DNA of 64,000 nucleotides from an uncultured virus (IMG/VR IMGVR_UViG_3300035701_006463). Taxonomy: Duplodnaviria > Heunggongvirae > Uroviricota > Caudoviricetes. The notes under the pieces are model-generated. The model made no database searches and had not been told where the DNA came from. It saw nothing but the letters and a program-made list of their open reading frames with translations. The stretch lies in IMG/VR virus record IMGVR_UViG_3300035701_006463. One strand, 5' to 3'. The stretch's first letter is position 1. Each line of letters starts with the position of its first letter. Below, one piece after another: positions 13,919 through 62,540 of the stretch. The position numbers and the translations under genes are program-made.

Positions 13919-13942
13919 TGAGAAAAACAGGCGGTTTTTGGT

Positions 13943-18195: not shown

Positions 18196-18520
18196 GTTCA
18201 CTAATAACGAAATTATCAAGGTTGTGGTTAGTATTCTGAAAAACCAGGTTACTCCCATACCTGTTAGGTGGATACGAGATGAGGTTTTCAAGGAAACTGG
18301 ATTCTTGTTTAGTTCTATTAAAATTGCCAGTATAATCAGTTGTGATGGGAGGGACTATAAAATCGTGCGACGTCCAGCCACAATGAGAGAAGCTATAGCG
18401 ATGTTTGGAGGCACAACGAAGATCTGGGCACGTGGCACTCACGTTTACTGGGTAGATGGGTATGGTGGAGGAGACGTGTGCTCGGATCCAAGGTGTGAGG
18501 ACGTTGAGGTGAAGTTATAA
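18179..18520 (+). CDS. Hypothetical protein, possibly winged helix
   Basis: 113-aa ORF. Confidence 0.5.
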   Translation: MILVLKFTNNEIIKVVVSILKNQVTPIPVRWIRDEVFKETGFLFSSIKIASIISCDGRDYKIVRRPATMREAIAMFGGTTKIWARGTHVYWVDGYGGGDVCSDPRCEDVEVKL

Positions 18521-18550
18521 AAAATCTTAAATATGATAAATCAATATAAT
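18520..18550 (+). promoter_or_regulatory. Class 2 promoter
   Basis: AAAAATCTTAAATATGATAAATCAAT, near-identical to 33393. Confidence 0.7.
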
Positions 18551-18566
18551 AAATTGAGGGTGGTGG

Positions 18567-20630
18567 ATGGGAAAGAAGAAAGGGATGCGGGTTATGAAAG
18601 ACAAGGTAAGGGTTATTGATGGGGTCAAGTTCACATGGGACGGAACTAGACATGGTGATAAAGAAGCTATTGAGGAAAGAAAAAGGTTACTTAAGAAGCA
18701 CGGTTTCTTAGTTAGGGTATTCAAGAGAAAATCCGGGAATAAGTATGTATATATGATATACTCGCACTTAGGAGGATGAGTAAGCAGTGCCGAAGTGGTT
18801 GGTTGGGGTAGAGAAGGAACCCAGAGTGGGTATGATGAGACGGTCCAGGATTCCTGATAGTACCTTAAAAAATAAACATATAATAGAGGCTGGTTGGGCG
18901 TCCGAAGCAAGACAAATATACGCAAGGAGATACAACAAAGGTTCTAGTGTTTCTGTTGTAGTTCACGTTGTGAAGGTAAAGAAGTAATGGGTAAAAAATT
19001 TAAGGACGGTATGCGTTATTTGTACTGGGGTTCTCTCCCACCCATTGGTCTCGAAAAGCGTAAGGCAATTATAGCAAAACTAATATCTGAGGGGTGGGTA
19101 GTGCGTATTACTAAGGGTCGGTACGGTATAGGTAAGGACGTTTATAAACGTCGTCCAAAGAAGGGTGAGGAACCACGGCAAATAGGTATTTTCTAGATGT
19201 TGGTGGGAGGTAAATGAGAAAGGAAGAACTAGAACGATTAAAAAAGAAATACAAAGTTAAGAGGACAAAGACCACAAAACCATGTGTGGTTCCCTCGAAG
19301 ACATGTAGTCCGGTGAAGTATTTACTTAAGGGTGTAGATTTTCCCATTTGTGAAAAACACTTACCTGATATTTTGGGTCGTCTCAATAGAACGGATTGGA
19401 TATCAAAGGTTAGTGTAAGGAAGTAATGCCCGCAAACGAGTACCCAACCAGAATTATAGACGACAATCAACCATTCAAACTTGATAACTACTATCACGAA
19501 AAATCTCGCGCTAAGGCACGATTCAGGATGTGGCACTCCAGAGGGTACAGAGTGCGTACTTTCCGCAGAGGAGATTGGTTTGTTGTGTACATATCCGTCA
19601 AGCCCACGAAGGGCTAGGGAGGTAAAAAGGAATGAGTTTGACATACAGGACTGAAAGTGGAAATATAGCTAAATGTAAGAGATGTGGCACAGTTATTGTG
19701 TATCACCCGCGAAAGAGACGAGACTGGTCAGGAAAAGTGAAGCATAGACCATCTCCTTTTTGTCCCAAGTGCAAGAAGTTTATGATTTGGAAGACTATGA
19801 AGTACGTCCGGGAGGTTTGAGGCGAGTGCCCGCTACCAGTAAGACTGTTCAAGATCTTTTCAGGAGAGCTAGGAAACGGGCAAAATTATGTCCCGATAAT
19901 GAACATGATTGGAGGCCGTGGGGTGAGTGGAATCGTCGTTGGTATAGGGGTGGAAGAGTTTTATGGTTTAGGATTAGGACATGTAAGAGGTGTGGGAAGA
20001 GGGCTAGAGAAGATAGTTCTGTTCCAAAGTGGTGAGATGAAAGAAGGGGTTGAGGCATGACTATAAAACTTGGGTTTAAAGTCAAATGTCCACGTTGTGA
20101 TCACAAGGACGCAATGAAGCTCGTGAGAGCCGAAGGAATGGGTACGTATCGTTTAGAATGTAAATACTGTGGGCAGATGATTCATGGAAACACGAGACAT
20201 ATTGTGGATTTCAGGAGCCAAATAAAGAATAGGTTTCCAAGGTTAGTGGAGGGTTGATATGTGAGCCATGGGAGAGTTAGGGTTGATTATCCGGTATGTG
20301 GTTGTCCCATATCTTGGTGGCATTTTTACAGTTGTTGTAGACGCCGGGGAGTGTTATACTACCGAAGACTTGTTCGGGCTGGAGTCAAGGAGTTGTTAGA
20401 GAATGGTGAAGTCACAAAGTCAACTACATAGGCAAAAAACCCGTGCCAAGGGTAGGTATTCGAGGTATCCTAGGTGCGAGTTTTGTGGCAAAGTAATTCT
20501 CGGTGAATATTATAGTGACCCGAGGTGCAATAAGACAGGTGTAGGTGTAGTTCTTCACAAGAGCTGTGTTAAGAAGGTCCGAGGTTTAAGTGATAAGGAA
20601 TATGTTTTGAGACTCACAGGAAGGAAGTGA
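18567..20630 (+). CDS. Operon of about 10 small Lys/Arg-rich and Zn-ribbon proteins (18567..18779, 18787..18987, 18987..19196, 19214..19426, 19426..19617, 19632..19820, ~19820..20035, 20057..20257, 20403..20630)
   Basis: Tightly coupled 60-90 aa ORFs with GGAGG/GGTGA RBS, very basic, several CxxC pairs. Confidence 0.7.
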
Positions 20631-20692
20631 AGATGGATGTTTCCAATAAGGTACGTGCTGGGCAGGATAATTAAGGAGAGGAGTGTTAGGTA

Positions 20693-32467: not shown

Positions 32468-33088
32468 ATGGTTCTGGATATGCTAGAGGACGTGAGCTCC
32501 GACGTGGTACTAGACGTTGGATGCGGGGATGGGGAAATTTCTAGGGCCATACAGGATCACGTGGACGGAGTGGTTGTTGGTGTTGATATTTCGAGAAGTC
32601 TCACTAGGGTGGCATCAAAACGACTGGACAACCTTATCATTGGAGACGTTGAACGTTGGTTACCGTTTAGGTTTCAGGTTTTCGACTTGTGCACTGGGTT
32701 GGATGTCATAGAACATGTTGTCGATACCGATGGTTTTCTCGTGGGGCTATACAATGTTCTTAAGCCCGGTGGGCACCTTATTATCGTGACACCGAACTTA
32801 GCGAGTTTGGTCGAGAGACTGTTGTTATTGTTTGGTTTTCAACCACAGAACGTGGAGGTCTCCAGAGTAGCTAAGTTTGGGTCTTTTAGTAAGACTCCAC
32901 CTGTCGGGCATTTCAGGGGTTTCACTTGGCCGGCTTTGAGGGATATGTTGGAGTATTACAAGTTCAAGGTTGTGGATTTTAGGGTTACGACATATTACAG
33001 TGGGGTGTTGAAAGTGATGGACTCGATGGCCGGTAGGGTGAGAAAGACGTTAGGGTCTCTTTTTGTAGTGTTATGCAGGAAGGTTTAA
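32468..33088 (+). CDS. Class I SAM-dependent methyltransferase
   Basis: VLDVGCGDG, DVIEH, IIVTPNLA; frame open upstream to 32369. Confidence 0.9.
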   Translation: MVLDMLEDVSSDVVLDVGCGDGEISRAIQDHVDGVVVGVDISRSLTRVASKRLDNLIIGDVERWLPFRFQVFDLCTGLDVIEHVVDTDGFLVGLYNVLKPGGHLIIVTPNLASLVERLLLLFGFQPQNVEVSRVAKFGSFSKTPPVGHFRGFTWPALRDMLEYYKFKVVDFRVTTYYSGVLKVMDSMAGRVRKTLGSLFVVLCRKV

Positions 33089-33112
33089 CCAATAAATTTA
33101 TAAATAATAAAA
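33086..33112 (+). promoter_or_regulatory. Class 1 promoter, identical 27-bp repeat copy 2
   Basis: TAACCAATAAATTTATAAATAATAAAA. Confidence 0.85.
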
Positions 33113-33125
33113 GATATTACTATAT

Positions 33126-33385
33126 AGGTGGTTAGGAACCTGAGGAAAGGTGAAAGTAGGGTGGACGGCTCCCGACCTGCGAAGAGCGAAAGCGGATTGA
33201 CCGGTGAGGTAAGTAGCAGGATCCGTCACCTGATCAGTAGCCCCTCACAAGGTTCCGGAGTACGTTAACTACTTGAAGTGGCTACGATGGAATGGTGAAC
33301 TACTCGATGTTCTAGTTACAGGTGCCGATAGTGATCTGTTGATATCGATCCCAACTGTACCTTAGATATCGTCCCAATATTTTTT
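33126..33385 (+). ncRNA. Structured non-coding RNA with canonical BHB motif
   Basis: GGAACCT-GAGG-AAA-GGT ... GCC-CCTC-ACA-AGGTTCC (33135-33256), nested stems, own promoter, T-run at 33380. Confidence 0.75.
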
Positions 33386-33392
33386 CTGAAAC

Positions 33393-33421
33393 AAAAGTCT
33401 TATATATGATAAATCGATAAT
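33393..33421 (+). promoter_or_regulatory. Class 2 promoter
   Basis: AAAAGTCTTATATATGATAAATCGAT. Confidence 0.7.
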
Positions 33422-33444
33422 GATAAATAGGGAAGTTGAGCTGA

Positions 33445-33996
33445 ATGAGTTTATTATCCAGAAAACCTCCGACTCGTCATCAGGTTGATCCATACGTCCG
33501 TGGTAACGGTACGTTTGTCAACGCATACTGGCGTGGGCAGGGCATACCTATGCGTCAGTCGAGCAGGATAGTGAAGTGGGAAAAGCCCGCCATACCTGTT
33601 GACTCGCCTGTCAAGGGTGATGTTATCGACCCGCTGATTCTTAGCTACAACTACGACTACAAAGAGAAAACCGCGCGTCCTGTCTCCTTCCGATTGAGTC
33701 TCATAACTTCTGAAGATGTCCGTGGATACGAGAACGAGGAATGGCTGGAGATGTTCCTCAAGGTGTTCCCAAACATAGACAACTCCATTCGTGAGGGATA
33801 CACAGTGGACGATGTCTCTACGGAGCATAGTCCGTTTGAGTGGGATCGATGGATTATCACCCTCAGCCTAAGACATAATGTACCAGAGGTTGAGACCAAA
33901 GATGTGGAGAAGAAGTATGTGGAGCGTCTGGCTAGGAAAACACTTCCTTCTCCACAAGCGGTCGAGGAAGAGTTTGAGGAGACGGAGGGGGCTTAA
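33445..33996 (+). CDS. Hypothetical protein with N-terminal H-x-V-xx-Y-x-R-x-x-G-T-x-V motif
   Basis: RHQVDPYVRGNGTFVNAYWRGQG. Confidence 0.7.
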   Translation: MSLLSRKPPTRHQVDPYVRGNGTFVNAYWRGQGIPMRQSSRIVKWEKPAIPVDSPVKGDVIDPLILSYNYDYKEKTARPVSFRLSLITSEDVRGYENEEWLEMFLKVFPNIDNSIREGYTVDDVSTEHSPFEWDRWIITLSLRHNVPEVETKDVEKKYVERLARKTLPSPQAVEEEFEETEGA

Positions 33997-36586: not shown

Positions 36587-36625
36587 TATATTATAATATA
36601 GAGGGTTATCAAAGGTGAAAAAGGA

Positions 36626-38866: not shown

Positions 38867-40405
38867 CTATGAACCAACCTTCGGCTTCTCAATCTGGCCA
38901 CTGAATCTATCTACACCCACGACCCCTTCCTCATCCACCCTTTCGTACCACACAACATCCCTCCCCATCACCACCTCTGTCACACTCCTCAACTGACCCG
39001 ACACCACCATCGAGTCCAGCACATCCCTCAGGTCGCCCGGCTTCCACCGCGTCCACTTGCACAATCGACTAAACGTCGGCTTCTCCCGCCGTTCATTCAT
39101 CAACTTATCCAATATATACAACAGCTTCTCCTGATCATTCCTATAATCCCTCACCACGCCCTTCCTGACATTCGGCGCCACCTCGTACATCCTCCTATAA
39201 TGCCCCAGATGCCTATTCATCTTCGCAATCGCCCACTTCGCATCCTCCACATTGATCACCACCTTTCCGCCCTCCGGCACGTACCCGGGACCCTCCTCAT
39301 ACGCCTCCAACGCATACCTCCCCACGCAGTGAACCATCGCCAACTTCATCGCATTTTGTGCCAACCGCCCAATCAAATTGGCATCCTTATTGAACAAATC
39401 CTCCTTGATCTTACTTATAGCGCTGTTGTACATCTCCAGCCTGTACCTATCCAACTCGCTGCTACCATAAAAATCCAACGATATCACCATGTCCTCCGGC
39501 AGGTACCGTATCGCCATCAACTTCCCAACCAACTCCGAAAAGACCCTCTTATCCTCCTCCTCCTCCTTCACGCCCCAGAAGAACTCCAATTTCATCATCT
39601 CCTTCTCCACGTCCACCACGTTCCTATTATCCAAATCATCGAATACCCACAGTATCCGTGTCCCAGTCCCCTGTATGAAAAAATCGTCATCCATAAAATT
39701 CAGCAGATAATACGTCGTCGCCGAAACAAAACTCACATACGCATCCTCCGGGTACTCCACGCCACGGCTAGCCGTCACGTACTTATCCGCCTCACAATCA
39801 TACAACCTACTCATATCCTCCATATTGTCCACCAAGAAATCCTTCCTAGCCGCCCCCTTGAACATCTTCGAGTACTCATCCCCTACTATTATACACTGTG
39901 GCTGGTGCATCAGGAACAACCCCAGTCCCTCCGACGTGAACTTCGACGGGCCCTCCAAGTCCACGAATTTAGCCTGTATCCTCTCCAGCTTCTCCCTCAT
40001 ATCCTTCCACGCCTTCGACAACCTGTTCCCCGCACCTTTCGCACTGGTCTTCTCCAAGTCGCTGTCCTTCAACGCTTGTTTGAACTGTTCATACGTCATC
40101 CCACCCTTCAAACACATTTCATTATTCAAGCGCCTCGTGACCTCCCTTATTATCATCCTAACCACCTTATTCGGCACTGTCTTGAACGATACCGCAGAAG
40201 CTCCAATATCTATCACAAAAATATTTGCACAAAGCTCCCCATACAGATTCACCATGTGCCTATCTCTCCCTATCATCGTCGATACCAGCGCGCAAGCCAA
40301 CGACTCTATCCAGTCCGGGTGCGTCTTTATCTTCCCATTCTGCCACAAATACTCCCCCAGCTCCCTCACCAACCCCGACGAGGTCAAGCTACCCAGACCA
40401 GACAT
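38867..40405 (-). CDS. DUF3987-like P-loop ATPase (putative replicative helicase) with C-terminal wHTH
   Basis: GASAVSFKT, IIVGDE, FFIQGTGTR. Confidence 0.65.
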   Translation of the reverse strand: MSGLGSLTSSGLVRELGEYLWQNGKIKTHPDWIESLACALVSTMIGRDRHMVNLYGELCANIFVIDIGASAVSFKTVPNKVVRMIIREVTRRLNNEMCLKGGMTYEQFKQALKDSDLEKTSAKGAGNRLSKAWKDMREKLERIQAKFVDLEGPSKFTSEGLGLFLMHQPQCIIVGDEYSKMFKGAARKDFLVDNMEDMSRLYDCEADKYVTASRGVEYPEDAYVSFVSATTYYLLNFMDDDFFIQGTGTRILWVFDDLDNRNVVDVEKEMMKLEFFWGVKEEEEDKRVFSELVGKLMAIRYLPEDMVISLDFYGSSELDRYRLEMYNSAISKIKEDLFNKDANLIGRLAQNAMKLAMVHCVGRYALEAYEEGPGYVPEGGKVVINVEDAKWAIAKMNRHLGHYRRMYEVAPNVRKGVVRDYRNDQEKLLYILDKLMNERREKPTFSRLCKWTRWKPGDLRDVLDSMVVSGQLRSVTEVVMGRDVVWYERVDEEGVVGVDRFSGQIEKPKVGS

Positions 40406-41343
40406 TACCCCTCTCCTCCTTCCTCTTCCACCTTCTCTTCCGGCTTCTCCTCCACCTTCACATCAACTTTTTCTTCTCCTTCCTTTCTCTTCATCCTATA
40501 AAAGATCGGATACTTTGGATACGTACTCCCCCGGCCCGGACTACACATCCTCAACGCTTCTATGCTGGAGCGACTAGCCACATCCAACAACATATAAAAA
40601 TCAAACAGCTCAATCCCATCCAAATACCTAGGCGCATTATCAAACAACCAAGGAAACATGTTCTCCTTCACGTCCATCACATTCCCCTTCTGGAAGAATT
40701 CCGAAACAATTCCAAACACATTCTTCTCCTCATACCCGCCCCCGCCATACATCGTGGATACCACAGCATTCCTAATATCGCTACCAACATTACTATAATC
40801 AATCTTCTCCGAACCTCCCACGATCTCCCTCTCCGCTATCTTCCTGACCGCCGCCACAACTGTATCCAGCCTCGGGCGCCTCAGACTTATATATATACAC
40901 TTCTCCTTCACATCGGCCGGTATCCGCCACGCCTCGTTCGCTGTCATCACTATCGGATGTTTTGTCGTCTGCAGCATATTCCTCAACGTTGCCCACGCAC
41001 TGAGATAGTCGATCTCATCCAATAGAAAAATATACTTCTCACCAAACGGACTCTCCTGTTGTACCCTCATCGCTATCTCATCCAGCTCACCCTTCCTCCT
41101 CTCATCCGAAGCGTTTGTCTCAATCACGGTATATCCATGTTCTTCAGCCACAGCATACACTGCTGATGTTTTGCCAATTCCGGAGCCAGATGTTAACAAC
41201 ACTGGAGTTCCGTCCCGCACCATTTCCCAGAGCTGGGCGTGTGACTTCGGATTTCCTACTAGGTCACTTAACTTCTTTGGAGCGTACTTTCTTGTCATCA
41301 TTTTTTCACTCACTCCTCTGGCTTCTCCGGTTGTGCGAACCAA
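40405..41343 (-). CDS. rfcL: Replication factor C large subunit-like (true start probably 41313 or 41301)
   Basis: KYAPKKLSDLVG, GSGIGKT, IETNASDER, LLDEID. Confidence 0.85.
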   Translation of the reverse strand: MVRTTGEARGVSEKMMTRKYAPKKLSDLVGNPKSHAQLWEMVRDGTPVLLTSGSGIGKTSAVYAVAEEHGYTVIETNASDERRKGELDEIAMRVQQESPFGEKYIFLLDEIDYLSAWATLRNMLQTTKHPIVMTANEAWRIPADVKEKCIYISLRRPRLDTVVAAVRKIAEREIVGGSEKIDYSNVGSDIRNAVVSTMYGGGGYEEKNVFGIVSEFFQKGNVMDVKENMFPWLFDNAPRYLDGIELFDFYMLLDVASRSSIEALRMCSPGRGSTYPKYPIFYRMKRKEGEEKVDVKVEEKPEEKVEEEGGEG

Positions 41344-43442: not shown

Positions 43443-44026
43443 ATCCCAACTGAGAATTTACTTTTTACAACCATACACATCTTCTTGACCACATTCAGTG
43501 GATATACTCTTTTTAACACAACACCATGATAGGCACATGTGGTAAATAAATTCACGCCGTTTGCCTCAGGCTTCTCTAGGGTGACTGGATCAAGTGGTTT
43601 TTCGGCTCTAATGAATTCTTCTGCACTCTCCCTCAGCCGTTTATTCAGCGAGGGTTGGTAATAATAAACACAAGCTAATTGTTTATCCGACCAATCTTCA
43701 TGAATCTTTCTTAACTTTTCCATGTGAGAAGTAAGATTAAATTCTTCTATCACCAAGAACATGGTGGGCTCGTGCTCATTGACCAGTTCATAAACAAATG
43801 TATCAGTGAGCATAGGTATGTCCAATTGTCTATACCCGTCTAAGCTTGCAATATCTGGGAAGAATTCCGCCTTCGGTGGGCATTCTTTTCTGGTTCCATA
43901 CATTCTACATCCACTTGGGTTAGTGTATCTCTTCTCACCGGACTTTAATTTGTGCTCTCCATAGGGTAGTTTACACCAGTCCTGAACATGTTTGGCAAAC
44001 ATTATTTTTCTCACAGGTACAATCAT
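43430..44026 (-). CDS. DUF2284-like metal-binding protein
   Basis: GCRMYG...CPP, PEANGVNLFTT. Confidence 0.65.
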   Translation of the reverse strand: MIVPVRKIMFAKHVQDWCKLPYGEHKLKSGEKRYTNPSGCRMYGTRKECPPKAEFFPDIASLDGYRQLDIPMLTDTFVYELVNEHEPTMFLVIEEFNLTSHMEKLRKIHEDWSDKQLACVYYYQPSLNKRLRESAEEFIRAEKPLDPVTLEKPEANGVNLFTTCAYHGVVLKRVYPLNVVKKMCMVVKSKFSVGMWFV

Positions 44027-44559
44027 TGGTAGGCCTTCTCACATGGTGCTCTAACAACCTTTCCGTCCGCCTGTAACAAAATATGACTACATTCTTCACA
44101 GTGGCTTGGATCATAGAAGTTTCTTGATACCTCAACGTCCTGATCCGGTATATTTCTACCACGTCCCTGTGGTATGAATTTCAGTAGATGCACTGTGGAT
44201 GCCTCTTCACGTGTTGGAATGTACGCGTTGAGCCCCGGCACTATATCTACATTTGCCTCCACCTTAACCCCATGTATGACCCTTGAATTGAACATTATAT
44301 GCTTGAGAGCGTTAGTGTAGACCCTCACATCTGCACATATCGAATAGCAGAATTTCAAGATATCGAGGAATTGGGGATGTGCTAGCGGCTCACCACCGGA
44401 TATATTGATTCGGGTTACATCCGTTTGCTTCTCTAGGAAATCTGTGATAACGTCATAGGGAAGATGTTTACCCTCACTGGAGGCATTTGAAGAGCATTCA
44501 GGGCACTCAAACGGGCAATACTGAGTAATTTCAATCGTTATTTCTGTCAAACAAACCAC
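44023..44559 (-). CDS. Small radical SAM protein
   Basis: CPFECPEC, ISGGEPLAHP, YTN. Confidence 0.88.
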   Translation of the reverse strand: MVCLTEITIEITQYCPFECPECSSNASSEGKHLPYDVITDFLEKQTDVTRINISGGEPLAHPQFLDILKFCYSICADVRVYTNALKHIMFNSRVIHGVKVEANVDIVPGLNAYIPTREEASTVHLLKFIPQGRGRNIPDQDVEVSRNFYDPSHCEECSHILLQADGKVVRAPCEKAYQ

Positions 44560-44798
44560 ACCCTACCATCTCCCTCCCTCGCTTGCAGCCTGAGCATGAG
44601 CACTGCCACGACTGCCAGTGGAAAGCTCACAACAAGGACCACCCAGAACACGGGGCTACATTGTACCTCACCGATTGTTCCGTATGGCTCCTGTTGAAAC
44701 AACTCCACTGGTCCGTGTATCGCTACCACTGTCAAACAGAATATAGCCACGATCGTGGATACGCCCGCCACTATGAGTAAGCGGTCGTTTTTTTTCAC
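44547..44798 (-). CDS. 2-TM membrane protein
   Basis: Hydrophobic profile. Confidence 0.55.
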   Translation of the reverse strand: MKKNDRLLIVAGVSTIVAIFCLTVVAIHGPVELFQQEPYGTIGEVQCSPVFWVVLVVSFPLAVVAVLMLRLQAREGDGRVWFV

Positions 44799-45529
44799 AC
44801 AAACAACCTCCCAACATCCACTTCCTTTGTTATGTTTAACAACCGTTTGTTGGCGATTTCAATATAATCTGGGTTGATCTCAAATCCTACATAATTCCTT
44901 CCTGTTAATTTACATGCTATAGCTGTTGTTCCACTCCCCATAAACGGATCCAAAACTGTGTCACCCTCATTCGAGAAAAAGCGGACGAGCCTTATCATTA
45001 GATCGAGTGGTTTTTGTGTTGGGTGCTTAACTCCCTCTTTGTCCTTCGGGGTAATTCTGTTGTGAACAAGAACGTCTGGTAAAAATTCCCACTCACTACT
45101 CCTTGGATTCTTACCCTTTATCCAAAACCAAACTTCAAACCTTCTTCCTAAACCGTTACCGGATGGCCCAGCACCGTTCGGTTTGTACCATATCCCCATG
45201 TATGTGGTATTTAAGCCTGCTAACTCCACAATGTGGAGAAAATCATGTATCCTCTCTATCGAGCCACTCCAAAAAAAGACTATGTCTCTTCTTGACACCC
45301 TGTAACATTCTTTGAGTATGGGGACGAGTTCTTTTTCCAGTTCATTGGTTGTTTTTCTAGCCACACCAACAGAATGATCCGCGAACTCTACATCATAGTT
45401 GATCCCGACACCATAGTCGGGATCTGTGATCACCACATCCACCGAGTTGTCCGGCATTTTTTTCATACCTACTAAGCAGTCCTCAAGGAAGATTTCGTTA
45501 AGTTTTAATGGTTCAGTATGTTCTGTCAC
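44795..45529 (-). CDS. DNA N4/N6 methyltransferase (beta class), catalytic motif variant DPDY
   Basis: ITDPDY, HPTQKP, VLDPFMGSGTT. Confidence 0.9.
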   Translation of the reverse strand: MTEHTEPLKLNEIFLEDCLVGMKKMPDNSVDVVITDPDYGVGINYDVEFADHSVGVARKTTNELEKELVPILKECYRVSRRDIVFFWSGSIERIHDFLHIVELAGLNTTYMGIWYKPNGAGPSGNGLGRRFEVWFWIKGKNPRSSEWEFLPDVLVHNRITPKDKEGVKHPTQKPLDLMIRLVRFFSNEGDTVLDPFMGSGTTAIACKLTGRNYVGFEINPDYIEIANKRLLNITKEVDVGRLFV

Positions 45530-46140
45530 TTAAACAGCCTCCCAACATCGTACCCTACCTTTCCCCACACTATACAATAATTCCCCATCAACATCCACTC
45601 CGTGCCCAACATAGCTGTGCCAGTCGCAGAAAGTTCCCAAATAACCATATCCTTGAGTACTAGGTTCTTGAACTGTTTCATAAACTGTATCACGTCAGAA
45701 TGCAGTGGATACATCACTTTATCCCTCCTAAGATCTCCGGTAACAACAATCAGGTGTCCTCCCGGTTGTAGCACCCTCTCCGCCTCCAGCAACGTTTTTC
45801 CCAACTCCCCCACAAAGGTTTCATATGTTTCGCAATTCGATAGGTCTCTGGGGTCGTCAGAGTACTTTATAGCCGTCCAGTACGGTGGGTGTGACAACAC
45901 CCCATCGAACTCACTGTCTATCCATTCCAGCCGCCTCGCGTCCTGTCCCTTTTCTATGCTGACTGTCTCCCACCGCAGCCCAAGTTGTGTGGCTACTTTT
46001 TGTGGCGTCTCACCCCCGTGGAACTGTTCTAGCCACTTCTGGTTTGGTACACTGTATTTTGACAGTAAGTAGTATACCAATCCGGAGTCTAGTCCTCCGC
46101 GGTGGTCATGTCGCTCGTATGGACTTCTGAAGATACTCAA
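45526..46140 (-). CDS. DNA/RNA amino-methyltransferase
   Basis: EQFHGG, SHPPYW, RVLQPGG. Confidence 0.78.
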   Translation of the reverse strand: MSIFRSPYERHDHRGGLDSGLVYYLLSKYSVPNQKWLEQFHGGETPQKVATQLGLRWETVSIEKGQDARRLEWIDSEFDGVLSHPPYWTAIKYSDDPRDLSNCETYETFVGELGKTLLEAERVLQPGGHLIVVTGDLRRDKVMYPLHSDVIQFMKQFKNLVLKDMVIWELSATGTAMLGTEWMLMGNYCIVWGKVGYDVGRLFK

Positions 46141-51033: not shown

Positions 51034-51218
51034 TTTTCTTTCACCTTTTCACCACTTGTAACCTTATCTTCTGGGGTGAGTTCAGAAGATTCAATTGGTT
51101 GTCTCTTCAATAAGCGACTAATAACATCTTCCATAGATTCACCCAGACGTCGTCTCATATTTAGTTCCCTCCACGTCGATTCATGGATGACTATGGTCGT
51201 AGTTTTTTCTTCACTCAT
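51030..51218 (-). CDS. RHH/antitoxin-like DNA-binding protein
   Basis: TTIVIHESTWRELN...GESMEDVISRLL. Confidence 0.7.
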   Translation of the reverse strand: MSEEKTTTIVIHESTWRELNMRRRLGESMEDVISRLLKRQPIESSELTPEDKVTSGEKVKEK

Positions 51219-56267: not shown

Positions 56268-57251
56268 TTAACTACTACTTCCTAAACCTTTACTCAAAAT
56301 TGGACAAGGAGAAAGGTAGGGTACCAACCAGACAAATGCCAAAAAGGAGATTACCTGAACGATTGGATTCGAGCCCCTATTTGAATTCCCTTCAGCCTCA
56401 CCAAGTTTCTCGAACAGCCTTATCTTTACATCCTTCGATGCCGTCAACGATGGTATAGCTTCATATAACTCCTTGAACGCCACCCTAGAATCATAGTTCC
56501 CCTCCACATACGCCTTTTCAATTGTCGTCTTTGCGTCCTCGAATTTACCAGCTAACGCTTGATTCATTGCTAAAACATACATCCCAACTGATGACTGTAT
56601 GATTGCTATCGACTCCGGTGTGATCGTCTTATTCTCGCCGATCACCTTCTCCAAATCGTTTATAGCAGTCCTCAGGTCGCCGTTGGCCTTCTTTACCAAC
56701 AACTTGATACTATCAATGACCAGCTTCTTTTCCTCTTCCGAATTCGCATGTACTTGAACGCCTTCTGCCCGTATGATCTCGACTATCCTCTTCTCTATCA
56801 CGTCGTCGGGTATGCGTCGGAACCTGAATATTGCACAACGACTCTTTATGGCGTCTAGGAATCGCCACTCATCGTTGCCAGAAAGAATAAAGATCGAGTC
56901 AGTTGTCTCCATTATTCTGCGGAGTGCATGTTGGGCTGGATCTGTCATCATATCTGCTTCGTCTAAAAACAGTATCTGCTTCATTTTGTACTGTGCCTGT
57001 TTCTTGATCTCGTACCTGACATCGTCTATTCCTCTGGCGTCGCTAGCATTGTACTCTAAAATGGGTATGCCAGTGACACTGGAGATGACCAACGCTGCTG
57101 ACGTTTTCCCAACTCCAGCGGGTCCTGAGAATAACATGTGCGGAAGTGTCCACCCACGTTCAATCACCTTTTTTATAGTTTGTATGACCTTTTCTTGCCC
57201 GACAATATCTGCCCAAACTTTTGGGCGGTATTTTTCTACTAGTCTTGTCAA
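56268..57251 (-). CDS. rfcS: Replication factor C small subunit
   Basis: VEKYRP, GPAGVGKT, NASDARG, LDEAD, AQHALRR, SRC, GDLR. Confidence 0.95.
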   Translation of the reverse strand: MTRLVEKYRPKVWADIVGQEKVIQTIKKVIERGWTLPHMLFSGPAGVGKTSAALVISSVTGIPILEYNASDARGIDDVRYEIKKQAQYKMKQILFLDEADMMTDPAQHALRRIMETTDSIFILSGNDEWRFLDAIKSRCAIFRFRRIPDDVIEKRIVEIIRAEGVQVHANSEEEKKLVIDSIKLLVKKANGDLRTAINDLEKVIGENKTITPESIAIIQSSVGMYVLAMNQALAGKFEDAKTTIEKAYVEGNYDSRVAFKELYEAIPSLTASKDVKIRLFEKLGEAEGNSNRGSNPIVQVISFLAFVWLVPYLSPCPILSKGLGSSS

Positions 57252-59015: not shown

Positions 59016-59966
59016 ATGATATTTGACTATATCATGTCATTAGAACAATACCCAGATTTCGTTCGTCAACCAATCGCACAGCTCACCCAACGTATGGGCA
59101 TATCAACCACCGAGGTCCTCACCATGTTCGAACGCGAACTGGAAAAAGCCAAAATAATGTCGTTGGAAAACTTTCCCAACGCCACCCCCCAGGAGCAGCT
59201 CGACATCCGTATGCGCTTCGCCATAGGTGTCGTTTGGCGCGACAACATCAACCTTCCGCCCCTCATATCGGCACAGCTCATTTTCGTCGGCCACGACGGC
59301 TTACAATCATCTGGCGCCGGTAAACCATACAGTAACATGTACTTCATCACCAATGAGCCGGGCACTGGCACCAAACTCATCCGCATGAGTGCAAAGGGCG
59401 GCTACGCAGAAGCCTACCGCTCGCTAGGGCTCTTTACCCGTTACGATGCACAGGTCGGCCGTTACAATACGGGCGACACACTACTCTTCGACTCGCGCGC
59501 TAGACTCTCCAACCCGACCCCTGTACCACTCTCTATTCGTCGTATGAACGAGTTATTGAGTATCCCCACGATCACGGTCGAACAGGCCAAAGACACCCCC
59601 TCCAGAACCCAATCCAGCGGCTTCATGATCGATACAGACTGGCGCTGCATATTCGGTTACTTCTCTGGTGAGCCGCGTGTCTTCGCCACCAAGAAAAACA
59701 AGGACATCCGTCGTGCCGTCTTCAACATCACGGATACATCAGTGAAGGAGAGTCCACACGTCGATGCACAGGGAAACATCGTGACGCCTGGCTTGACCGC
59801 TTGGGCTGCTCCAGAACATCTCGTGTACGATGAGCGCAGCTATTGTGCCTTTTATGGACCCATCCGTGTGATCAGGGACGTGGAAAAAGATATCGTTTCC
59901 GCTTCAATGAACACATTCCTCGTGCGTCCGATACTCACAACAGACAAAGGCGTGACTGAAGTATGA
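59016..59966 (+). CDS. Putative OB-fold ssDNA-binding protein
   Basis: Helical N-terminus and two beta-rich domains; inferred mainly from context. Confidence 0.45.
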   Translation: MIFDYIMSLEQYPDFVRQPIAQLTQRMGISTTEVLTMFERELEKAKIMSLENFPNATPQEQLDIRMRFAIGVVWRDNINLPPLISAQLIFVGHDGLQSSGAGKPYSNMYFITNEPGTGTKLIRMSAKGGYAEAYRSLGLFTRYDAQVGRYNTGDTLLFDSRARLSNPTPVPLSIRRMNELLSIPTITVEQAKDTPSRTQSSGFMIDTDWRCIFGYFSGEPRVFATKKNKDIRRAVFNITDTSVKESPHVDAQGNIVTPGLTAWAAPEHLVYDERSYCAFYGPIRVIRDVEKDIVSASMNTFLVRPILTTDKGVTEV

Positions 59967-61297
59967 GCATAGAAGACCTATTTGGTCCCACCCCCAAAAA
60001 GGAGCAGCCTCAACAGGTCACGCCCCCACAGGAAACACTTCCTTCACCAGTAGAAGAAATAGTAAAGAAAATCCTCGGCGCCCGGCCAAACCTGACCCGT
60101 GAGGCTGTTTTAAAGCTCATCGAGGAGGAGGTGGCGAAAGCAGCTGGCCTCCTCACCGTGGAAGGTGCTGCCCATCTTGTCCTAGCAAATCTTGATATTC
60201 AGGCTGAGGAGCAGCCACCAGTGCCTATACCCGAAACAAAGCCCCCTCTAATATCCACTCCGGTCACATCAACAGAGGACCTATTTTCTCATCCAGCTCC
60301 GCCGGCTGCGGTTGCTTCAGTGAGTGTAGGGGAACCACTATCTGAGCCGGAGGGAGAGCCCGTAGGAGATCAGGAAGCGCAGGAACCAGAGGCGGCAGTT
60401 GAAGCCGAGTTATTCACCGGCGTCTCTCCGGGGGAGGTTCGCCCAGTTAAACCACAGGTCGAGGCGACTCCACAGGCAACAGATGCGATCTTTGAATCGT
60501 CCAAAACGCGAACAGAACTTCCTAGGGCACCACTCCCAAGAATGCCCGATAAATTCGATACATCACCCGAAAAGACAGCGGAGAGTCGCACATTCCTATT
60601 TTACGGTGAAAAAGGAGACTCAAAGACCTTTTCTGCCCTATCATTCCCGGGAAGGCAGGACATCCTATCGTTCGACCACAAGACGGTCGCTGTTTGGGAG
60701 GAGTCCTTTAAACGGGATCCTAGGATAACTATCTACGATGCTATTCGTTACATGGACTACTCCTCTCCCGACGCTTGGTTAATGTCATCGGAGATCACGC
60801 TACAATACATCAATATTCTGCTAGACGAGATAAGAATCCGTAGTGACAAACCCGACTGGATAATCGTGGACGGCTTAGAAGAGTTCACAAAGATAGCCGA
60901 AATGGTCATGCGCTATCGTAACGGTATCCGCATGACGCAAGGTGTCGAATGGAGTTTCTGGAAAGAGCGTCGCTTATACTTGAAACAAATACACCTCAAA
61001 GCAATGGGCATAGCGAAACGTGGTCTAATCTACACAACATATCCAGGGAAGCTAGAGAAGGTCGTGGACGGTAAGATAGTCGAGTCCACAAAGGTGCCGC
61101 GTTGGGTTGATGTCGTAAAGGAGCAGACGGATGTTGTAATATTGGTTGAAAGTAAACAGACAAACGAAGGTAGAAGGTTCTATGCGACGATCGAATCGTC
61201 AAAATATGGACCGTTCCGTACTGGGCGTCGCGTGGACATAACTGTACCACCCGGACAAACGCCCAATGTTTATGATCTAATAGTGAAAGGAGGTTGA
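59963..61297 (+). CDS. AAA_24/Sak4-like ATPase with RPA-type N-terminal helical domain and acidic Pro-rich linker
   Basis: LTREAVLKLIEE...GLLTVEGAAHLV; YGEKGDSKT; IIVDG. Confidence 0.7.
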   Translation: MSIEDLFGPTPKKEQPQQVTPPQETLPSPVEEIVKKILGARPNLTREAVLKLIEEEVAKAAGLLTVEGAAHLVLANLDIQAEEQPPVPIPETKPPLISTPVTSTEDLFSHPAPPAAVASVSVGEPLSEPEGEPVGDQEAQEPEAAVEAELFTGVSPGEVRPVKPQVEATPQATDAIFESSKTRTELPRAPLPRMPDKFDTSPEKTAESRTFLFYGEKGDSKTFSALSFPGRQDILSFDHKTVAVWEESFKRDPRITIYDAIRYMDYSSPDAWLMSSEITLQYINILLDEIRIRSDKPDWIIVDGLEEFTKIAEMVMRYRNGIRMTQGVEWSFWKERRLYLKQIHLKAMGIAKRGLIYTTYPGKLEKVVDGKIVESTKVPRWVDVVKEQTDVVILVESKQTNEGRRFYATIESSKYGPFRTGRRVDITVPPGQTPNVYDLIVKGG

Positions 61298-62080: not shown

Positions 62081-62147
62081 CTCTTTTGTTTCCGGAGAAC
62101 CGGACTGATGAGGCAGCCACCAATGGTTGGCTGTCAGAAACAAAGAG
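62081..62147 (+). ncRNA. Type III hammerhead-like ribozyme (variant)
   Basis: CTCTTTTG-TT-TCCGG(AGAA)CCGGA-CTGATGA-GGCAGCCA..TGGCTGTC-A-GAAA-CAAAGAG. Confidence 0.72.
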
Positions 62148-62156
62148 GTTAAGAAT

Positions 62157-62540
62157 ATGTACAGGCTAAGGGTTCAGACCGATTTGGAAGCGGCTCACTT
62201 TCTGGAGGGCTACAAGGGGAGGTGTGCTAATCTACATGGCCACTCATGGGTGGTTGAGGTATTCGTGGTGGGTTCTGACTTAGACAAAGTTGGAATGTTA
62301 GTTGACTTCGGCAATATAAAGGGTGAACTGACAAAGGTAGTTGATAGGCTGGATCATACGCTTCTCAACGATATAAAGGAGATAGGCAATCCAACATCTG
62401 AGAATTTGGCTAAGTACATCTATGACTTCATGGGCTTCATGGTACCGGCACTACCTTCTGGGGTTGAGTTGGAGAAGGTGAGAATTTGGGAGACACCAAG
62501 AGCATGGTGTGAGTATTGTGGGGAGATGAGGAAGGTTTAG
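62157..62540 (+). CDS. queD: 6-carboxytetrahydropterin synthase
   Basis: AAHFL...CANLHGHSW, DFG, LDH, NPTSENLA, ETP. Confidence 0.93.
   Translation: MYRLRVQTDLEAAHFLEGYKGRCANLHGHSWVVEVFVVGSDLDKVGMLVDFGNIKGELTKVVDRLDHTLLNDIKEIGNPTSENLAKYIYDFMGFMVPALPSGVELEKVRIWETPRAWCEYCGEMRKV

Follow-up and report, generated by a model that had tools for sequence, protein, structure and literature searches.

A candidate non-coding RNA unit with a BHB-closed hairpin in a probable virus or extrachromosomal element of sediment archaea

The locus and its genetic element

Positions 33126–33385 of the DNA analysed here, a stretch of 64 kb termed the window, plausibly constitute a stand-alone non-coding unit of ∼260 nt that extends from a promoter to a T-run. 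The features of the unit are listed in Table 1. On its 3′ side the unit is followed by a second AT-rich, promoter-like block (33393–33419) and then by the open reading frame 33445–33996. The block recurs at 18520–18546.

Table 1. Coordinates of the sequence and predicted structural features of the unit
Feature	Position	Strand	Remarks
Promoter copy	33085–33121	+	AT-rich BRE/TATA-like core AAATTTATAAATAATAAAA; archaeal type, strong; perfect copy of the repeated promoter
GTG open reading frame, 46 codons	33128–33268	+	In-frame GTG at 33161 after AGGTGA; judged not to be a gene
BHB outer helix	GGAACCT 33135–33141 / AGGTTCC 33250–33256	+	7 Watson-Crick pairs
BHB central 4-bp helix	GAGG 33142–33145 / CCTC 33243–33246	+	All Watson-Crick; pair probability 0.91
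5′ bulge AAA	33146–33148	+	Predicted cut between 33147 and 33148
BHB inner helix	GGT 33149–33151 / GCC 33240–33242	+	Pair probability 0.88–0.91
Predicted excised piece	33148–33248	+	101 nt; from BHB geometry
Internal loop	GAAAGTA 33152–33158 facing GATCAGTA 33232–33239	+	AGTA/GAA, loop-E-like by eye only
Helix	GGGTG(G)ACGG 33159–33168 / CCGTCACCT 33223–33231	+	In MFE and centroid structures
Apical region	33169–33222	+	Fold ill-defined; candidate helix CCTGC 33176–33180 / GCAGG 33216–33220
BHB 3′ half	33243–33256	+	CCTC, ACA bulge, AGGTTCC
3′ bulge ACA	33247–33249	+	Predicted cut between 33248 and 33249
3′ part of unit	33257–33379	+	Present in all strain variants; direct repeats, two predicted hairpins
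Direct repeats	GTTAACTACTTGAAGT 33264–33279, GTGAACTACTCGATGT 33295–33310	+	31 bp apart; within the part kept by all strains
T6 run	33380–33385	+	Direct reading; likely archaeal terminator of the unit

The window probably derives from a virus, or from an extrachromosomal element of another kind, that is associated with Bathyarchaeia-like sediment archaea, and its DNA is present in sediment metagenomes. Its genes include a sugar-modification cluster, many open reading frames that belong to no family, and genes for an HNH endonuclease, a DUF3987 primase-like protein, two RFC-like clamp loaders, a PD-(D/E)XK nuclease, several DNA methyltransferases, a ParB-like nuclease, NrdD together with a small radical-SAM protein, and QueD. 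Genes for a capsid or a terminase are not seen in the window, and ARAGORN reports no tRNA genes in it. The absence of tRNA genes and of Rfam matches, together with this gene content, suggests a mobile element. The NrdD protein is 70–75% identical to that of many Bathyarchaeia MAGs, and distant relatives of the primase-like protein, at 23–33% identity, are found in three of 401 Bathyarchaeia genomes. A 444-aa protein of the window resembles AAA_24 clusters that are 86–100% viral, and is taken as a lead only.

Several other gene groups in the window deserve description. The RFC-like clamp-loader ATPases are encoded at 40405–41343 and 56268–57251 (both on the − strand), the DUF3987 primase-like protein at 38867–40405 and the AAA_24-like protein at 59963–61297; judging by these similarities, the four are a self-contained replication module. 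The reading frame 62127–62540 encodes a QueD/PTPS protein (E 1e-36), and 44023–44559 (− strand) a small protein of the radical-SAM type, for which weak QueE-like and NrdG-like matches are found. These two may be 7-deazaguanine DNA-modification genes such as are present in some viruses; alternatively, the radical-SAM protein could serve as activase of NrdD. The adjacent and overlapping reading frames 44795–45529 and 45526–46140 (both − strand) each correspond to a different portion of the same phage DNA-methyltransferase families (phrog_67 and phrog_498), and evidently are a split or two-part methylase. The region 18560–20640 contains about ten very short open reading frames, many with CxxC pairs (zinc-ribbon-like), each with an AGGTGA-type ribosome-binding site.

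Promoter, extent and terminator of the unit

The promoter upstream of the unit is one of six copies in the window (at 13938, 14287, 33085, 36229, 36559 and 37710), which are 37–47 nt in length and 73–100% identical. Five of the six are found directly upstream of small protein open reading frames, and the copy at 33085 is the sole one that is not. The uniformity of the six copies suggests a single temporal gene class on a virus or plasmid. Based on promoter spacing, we infer a transcription start at about 33126–33128. The ∼260 nt downstream of the 33085–33121 promoter have no credible open reading frame and lead to a run of six T residues; oligo-T runs are terminators of archaeal transcription. 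An initial annotation of this DNA described a stand-alone unit with a promoter upstream and a T-run downstream, and this description is borne out. The window has no further copies of any part of the unit.

The two direct repeats in the 3′ part of the unit, GTTAACTACTTGAAGT and GTGAACTACTCGATGT, are possible protein-binding sites. The two hairpins that had been placed here, at 33258–33305 and 33306–33370, do appear in the minimum free energy structure, but the energy of this part is no better than that of shuffled sequence (z +0.51; 133 of 200 shuffles as good).

The BHB hairpin

In the 5′ part of the unit, 122 nt (33135–33256) form a GC-rich hairpin, which is closed at its base by a geometrically canonical bulge-helix-bulge (BHB) motif. 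Both strands, read 5′ to 3′, present a helix, a 4-nt central helix, a 3-nt bulge and a further helix, and this is the orientation of the BHB in archaeal pre-tRNAs. The motif has the strict hBHBh′ form: a 4-bp central helix, opposite 3-nt bulges located 3′ of the central-helix strands, and flanking helices. The reverse strand carries the mirror image of the motif and gives no strict BHB matches. Direct reading of the sequence reproduces the outer helix at the positions that the initial annotation had assigned to it, and also the central and inner helices and the AAA and ACA bulges which that annotation described. The canonical BHB cut is after the second bulge nucleotide, and cuts of this kind would indeed give the 101-nt piece that had been proposed.

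The outer helix has six pairs with probabilities of 0.96–0.98 and a last pair with 0.52. The helix GGGTG(G)ACGG/CCGTCACCT, also described previously, is seen both by reading and by its pair probability of 0.83–0.98, with one end pair at 0.55. When the whole 261-nt transcript is folded, the pair probability is ∼0.9 at 37°C and 0.7–0.8 at 15°C, both for the BHB helices and for GGGTG/CACCT. The apical pairings of the initial annotation are poorly supported: the CCTGC/GCAGG helix has a pair probability of 0.25–0.40, the ACC/GGT pairing of ∼0.15 and the GC-GAAA-GC tetraloop hairpin of 0.03. The two loop-E-like motifs of that annotation are a reading by eye.

Chance expectation and folding energy

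A strict scan for BHB motifs (an outer helix of at least seven Watson-Crick pairs, a central helix of four Watson-Crick pairs, an inner helix of at least three, and a span of up to 300 nt) gives a single match in the window, and this is the motif at 33135–33256. A permissive scan gives 379 matches on the + strand alone. Markov shuffles of the 64-kb window have a mean of 0.5 strict BHBs, and 79 of 200 such shuffles have at least one. Since about 0.5 such BHBs are expected per random 64-kb window, the BHB alone is not significant as a window-wide discovery; the initial annotation had surveyed the window in its entirety. At the level of the unit, dinucleotide shuffles of 33126–33386 produce the strict BHB in 0 of 2000 cases and a relaxed BHB in 415 of 2000. 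The placement of the BHB on the strand of the promoter, and within the sole promoter-driven unit that has no gene, is unlikely by chance (about 1 in 1000).

Folding energies do not stand out. The 152-nt hairpin has a z-score of −1.37 (20 of 200 shuffles as good) and the whole unit +0.93, and the reverse strand, at −1.49, is as good as the hairpin. In base composition, the module of 122 nt is a GC island: its GC content is 57.4% compared with a window mean of 44.2%, which places it in the top 2.1% of 122-nt segments, and its flanks have 16% and 41.5%.

Strain variants in sediment metagenomes

The sole comparative data come from DNA contigs of four sediment metagenome runs (X2–X5), aligned on 32900–33600. 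Run X2 has an almost identical copy. Run X4 has a contig that spans 33091–33210 and represents a variant that is ∼87% identical; it differs at 15 positions and has one insertion. The positions of the differences are given except for the ∼30 letters at contig ends, and are complete for 33120–33180. Eight substitutions are found within 33120–33180, at 33120, 33123, 33133, 33162, 33163, 33171, 33176 and 33177. Thus the 28 nt of 33134–33161, which encompass the GAAAGTA strand of the internal loop as well as the 5′ half of the BHB, are unchanged, and the next 16 nt have five substitutions. The changes at 33162 and 33163 are in the helix that begins at 33159, and their pairing partners, 33227 and 33228, as well as the BHB 3′ half lie beyond the contig. 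The divergence of the X4 variant (∼12%) is not lower than that of the coding flank (∼10%).

In the candidate apical helix CCTGC/GCAGG, X4 displays C33177A together with an apparent G33219T, a change from a C-G to an A-T pair; G33219T is taken from ten loose letters where the contig ends, and this is the only compensatory pair seen. Covariation, which the initial annotation had proposed as a check, is represented by this one pair, and there are no homologues for a wider analysis.

Runs X3 and X5 match the window at 32900–33112 and 33255–33596 and do not have 33113–33254. The left contig continues for at least 1276 nt in other sequence, which begins with AGGTGA, 7 nt and ATG, as a gene start does. 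The 30 letters that precede 33255 in these strains resemble a diverged BHB 3′ half in which ACA and GGTT are retained. A further breakpoint, at 33385, is found in X4 contigs. No contig that joins the flanks without the module is found in X2–X5, which is no evidence either way as contigs drop rare forms. The segment 33113–33254 is a strain-variable slot directly behind a promoter and has the look of an accessory-gene hotspot.

The flanks of X3 and X5 are 93–97% identical to the window and those of X4 ∼88–90%. The module is thus present in the more distant X4 lineage and absent from the closer X3 and X5 lineages, which indicates that it predates the strain split and has since been swapped or lost. 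The existence of X3 and X5 strains without 33113–33254 also indicates that the module is dispensable.

The 46-codon reading frame and the ribosome-binding sequence

The GTG open reading frame that had been noted as overlapping the structure, 33128–33268 with 46 codons, is present. No protein homologues of it are found among candidates of 25–81 aa in a set of 5.8 billion proteins, and there is no match in PHROG. Its codon score of −0.041 is below that of all 3000 of 3000 real 45-codon gene segments (5th percentile 0.069), and it is within the top 2.7% of off-frame segments. In the X4 variant the frame has one synonymous change, the replacements V to D, S to Y and P to Y, and a 1-nt insertion that is an apparent frameshift. 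The V to D replacement changes GTG 33161 to GAT and destroys the candidate internal start. The initial annotation had named conservation of the peptide with loss of the pairing as an outcome that would speak against an RNA; the X4 variant shows that the peptide is not conserved.

The sequence AAAGGTGAAAG, at 33146–33156, is the ribosome-binding (Shine-Dalgarno) consensus of this genome, and it overlaps part of the BHB. Matches to AAAGGTGAAAG/A with up to one mismatch number six, compared with 1.8 expected, and include 33146–33156, 36611–36621 and 51038–51048 (− strand). The AAAGGTGAAAG context is located 7 nt before the starts 51033 and 36626, and GTG 33161 has an equal spacing. Accordingly, the module could derive from a gene start. 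A 'GG-AAA-G processing signature' had been described as common to this unit and to guides elsewhere. This signature coincides with the AAAGGTGAAAG ribosome-binding site and the guides were not found; given that AAAGGTGAAAG is a ribosome-binding site elsewhere in the window, GG-AAA-G is no evidence of a common processing signal.

Searches for homologues and RNA families

Beyond near-identical metagenome copies no homologues of the unit were found, and covariation analysis was thus left with no homologue set. Among the metagenome contigs searched there is one near-identical copy of the locus, with one difference. Neither blastn against phage records nor exact or gapped patterns in viral contigs gave a useful homologue; a lone 18-mer match in an unrelated contig consists of a ribosome-binding site and the start of a repressor-like gene. 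With blastn against five and then 401 Bathyarchaeia genomes, only chance-level matches of 16–28 nt were obtained (five of the 401 genomes at E ≤ 0.01 per genome), and one short match is in coding-looking sequence. The surrounding 12 kb of context matched none of the 401 genomes. A covariance model of the unit recognizes itself alone in the window, has a match in one of 151 genomes at E 0.58, and has none in the loci near the distant primase relatives. A search with the neighbouring proteins in viral contigs yielded no relatives.

The initial annotation assigned the RNA to no recognized family and proposed an Rfam search, and that search agrees with it. None of the 4227 Rfam 15 covariance models matches the 64-kb window at the gathering score. 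At E ≤ 10 there are four weak matches, none of which is credible or relevant.

Specific RNA classes were also considered. A tRNA with an intron, or a permuted tRNA, was rejected: at its default threshold ARAGORN reports no tRNA genes in the window, and none either when the 101-nt ring is given as a circular molecule or when the spliced product is searched. The sole match, a poor 'tRNA-Thr' at 33271–33368, appears at an 80% score threshold and disappears at 90%. The loop motifs bear some likeness to the S domain of SRP RNA. There is, however, no match to RF01857 (Archaea_SRP) at the gathering score or at E ≤ 10, and two canonical Bathyarchaeia SRP RNAs compared by reading have no resemblance to the present sequence; for these reasons SRP RNA, including its permuted circular form, was dropped. 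The same model, which is the ordinary non-permuted one, has matches in all five Bathyarchaeia genomes searched, four of them above the family cut-off. Some box C/D sRNAs are circular in archaea. A box C/D sRNA (C box RUGAUGA with D box CUGA) was rejected, as none of the 29 RTGATGA matches of the window falls in 33120–33390. An H/ACA RNA or K-turn was considered by eye: an ACA is found within the 3′ bulge, but tandem G.A pairs could not be placed in register.

Possible origin and function of the unit

The reading that we tentatively prefer, and which we hold to be a real possibility that falls short of probable, is that of a stand-alone non-coding unit whose BHB serves the host splicing endonuclease as a substrate, the products being a ring of 101 nt and a linear, spliced RNA. 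In its favour are the absence of the strict BHB from 2000 shuffles of the unit, pairing at ∼0.9, the GC island, the promoter copy that has no gene, and the pattern of changes in X4. Counting against it are the chance expectation of ∼0.5 per window, the weak z-scores, the single compensatory pair, the dispensability of the module and the presence of AAAGGTGAAAG.

The sequence shows the BHB with its orientation and predicted stability, the promoter and terminator that frame it, and the lack of a credible gene; from these we infer transcription, cleavage, ligation and any function of such a unit, and the steps proposed are as follows. The element's own consensus promoter would drive a unit of ∼260 nt that starts near 33126 and ends in the T6 run (33380–33385). 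The host tRNA-splicing endonuclease (EndA) would cut in both bulges, at 33147/33148 and 33248/33249. A host RtcB-type ligase would then circularize the excised 101 nt, which as a ring would resist nucleases, and would join the flanks into a linear RNA of ∼160 nt with a 7-bp stem and a 7-nt loop. Of the two products, the ring would be the relevant one: a small, stable RNA with early expression from a strong promoter, which would act in trans by binding protein or as a decoy. A function as a stable trans-acting decoy or regulator is our guess.

The main rival reading of the locus, which we consider somewhat unlikely, is that of a transcribed, functionless remnant, in which the 140-nt module represents the start and the end of a gene after the loss or swap of a cassette at a strain-variable hotspot behind a strong promoter. 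The BHB would then be fortuitous, and perhaps cut with no consequence. The locus does behave as a site of cassette swapping, given the at least 1276 nt of other DNA, opening with a gene start, that X3 and X5 have between 33112 and 33255, and the module itself has the ribosome-binding consensus followed after 7 nt by a GTG in a frame that is open throughout. The expectation of ∼0.5 BHBs per window, the weak energy z-scores (−1.37 for the hairpin and +0.93 for the unit) and a divergence of X4 that is not below that of the coding flank are also what such a remnant would have. It accords poorly, however, with the 0 of 2000 local shuffles that have a strict BHB and with a GC content in the top 2% of segments. 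Nor does it readily account for the 28-nt segment of the BHB 5′ half that is unchanged next to 16 nt with five changes, for the one compensatory pair, or for the survival of the module in a lineage that is more distant (∼88–90% in the flank) than the one that does not have it (93–97%).

The preferred reading of a ring-forming unit can be extended to the biology of the element. A Bathyarchaeia-like virus or plasmid might carry a small-RNA gene under its own strongest promoter and hijack the endonuclease and ligase of the host, such that a 101-nt ring would serve as decoy or regulator during infection, and the gene would be located in an accessory slot, like cassettes for anti-defence or host takeover. 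We regard this wider scenario as unlikely in its entirety.

The 101 nt could instead be a BHB intron, selfish or regulatory, within a non-coding RNA whose spliced linear form (the 5′ hairpin and 33257–33379) would be the product of importance. This is improbable. The 3′ part is retained in all strain variants and the module is not, and a BHB intron in an mRNA 5′ UTR is already known (PMC7714728). Yet no X2–X5 contig joins the flanks without the module, and the 3′ part folds no better than shuffles and matches no family. Excision also restores no frame, and the spliced frame from GTG 33128 stops after ∼15 codons.

It is very improbable that the locus functions as a DNA-level element, that is, as a regulatory or recombination site such as operator repeats for the promoter of the open reading frame 33445–33996. 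The direct repeats GTTAACTACTTGAAGT and GTGAACTACTCGATGT at a distance of 31 bp, the second promoter-like block (33393–33419, repeated at 18520–18546) and the strain breakpoints at 33112, 33255 and 33385 fit such an element, but the repeats are in the 3′ part, outside the BHB module, and a full consensus promoter is directed into a unit that has a T-run at its end.

A small-protein gene, either the leaderless 46-codon frame 33128–33268 or a 35-codon form from GTG 33161, has an open frame and an AGGTGA 7 nt before that GTG, spaced as at the real starts 51033 and 36626, but it is scarcely credible given that there is no homologue among the 25–81 aa candidates of the 5.8-billion-protein set and no PHROG match, that none of the 3000 real segments scores as low in codon usage (−0.041), and that X4 has GAT in place of GTG 33161, S to Y, P to Y and a 1-nt insertion.

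Comparison with known systems

In archaeal pre-tRNAs, the first two anticodon bases are in the 4-bp helix of the BHB and the splice sites are in the bulges (PMC4090602). The cut-site geometry of archaeal tRNA introns of the hBHBh′ type is identical to that described here: a 4-bp helix, two 3-nt bulges and flanking helices. The tRNA introns are reported to be 11–129 nt in length, and the 101-nt piece is within this range. The unit differs from tRNA introns in that there is no tRNA around the 33148–33248 piece (ARAGORN, default threshold).

The splicing endonuclease of Haloferax volcanii has non-tRNA substrates, for example a BHB in the 5′ UTR of HVO_1309 (Schwarz et al. 2020, PMC7714728). The HVO_1309 element resembles the present unit in being a BHB outside of tRNA and rRNA in an ordinary transcript, and its excised piece, once cut out by the tRNA-splicing endonuclease, has been recovered as a circular RNA (same source). 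The two differ in that the HVO_1309 element is located in the leader of a cellular mRNA and was demonstrated by experiment, whereas the present unit is a predicted, stand-alone non-coding one in a probable viral or extrachromosomal element. In Thermoproteus tenax the SRP RNA is permuted and circular (Plagens et al. 2015, PMC4731332). Unlike that RNA, the present unit is not an SRP RNA, there being no RF01857 match.

EndA substrates outside of tRNA and rRNA, and functional circles made from them, are known in cells (PMC7714728, PMC4731332). Circular RNAs made by tRNA-splicing enzymes in archaeal cells comprise tRNA and rRNA introns, one mRNA leader and the permuted SRP RNA. In the literature searched, there is no report of a stand-alone RNA gene that is carried by a virus or a plasmid and designed for BHB processing, and the main text of a paper on Bathyarchaeia viruses (PMC10541130) does not mention non-coding RNA, introns or promoters.

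The unit is 260 nt in length and has a defined promoter, with cut sites and junction predicted to the nucleotide. Without a ring, the locus is simply an ordinary spacer that varies between strains. A ring, if present, would provide a first and tractable example of a mobile element that produces a stable small RNA by way of the RNA splicing of its host.
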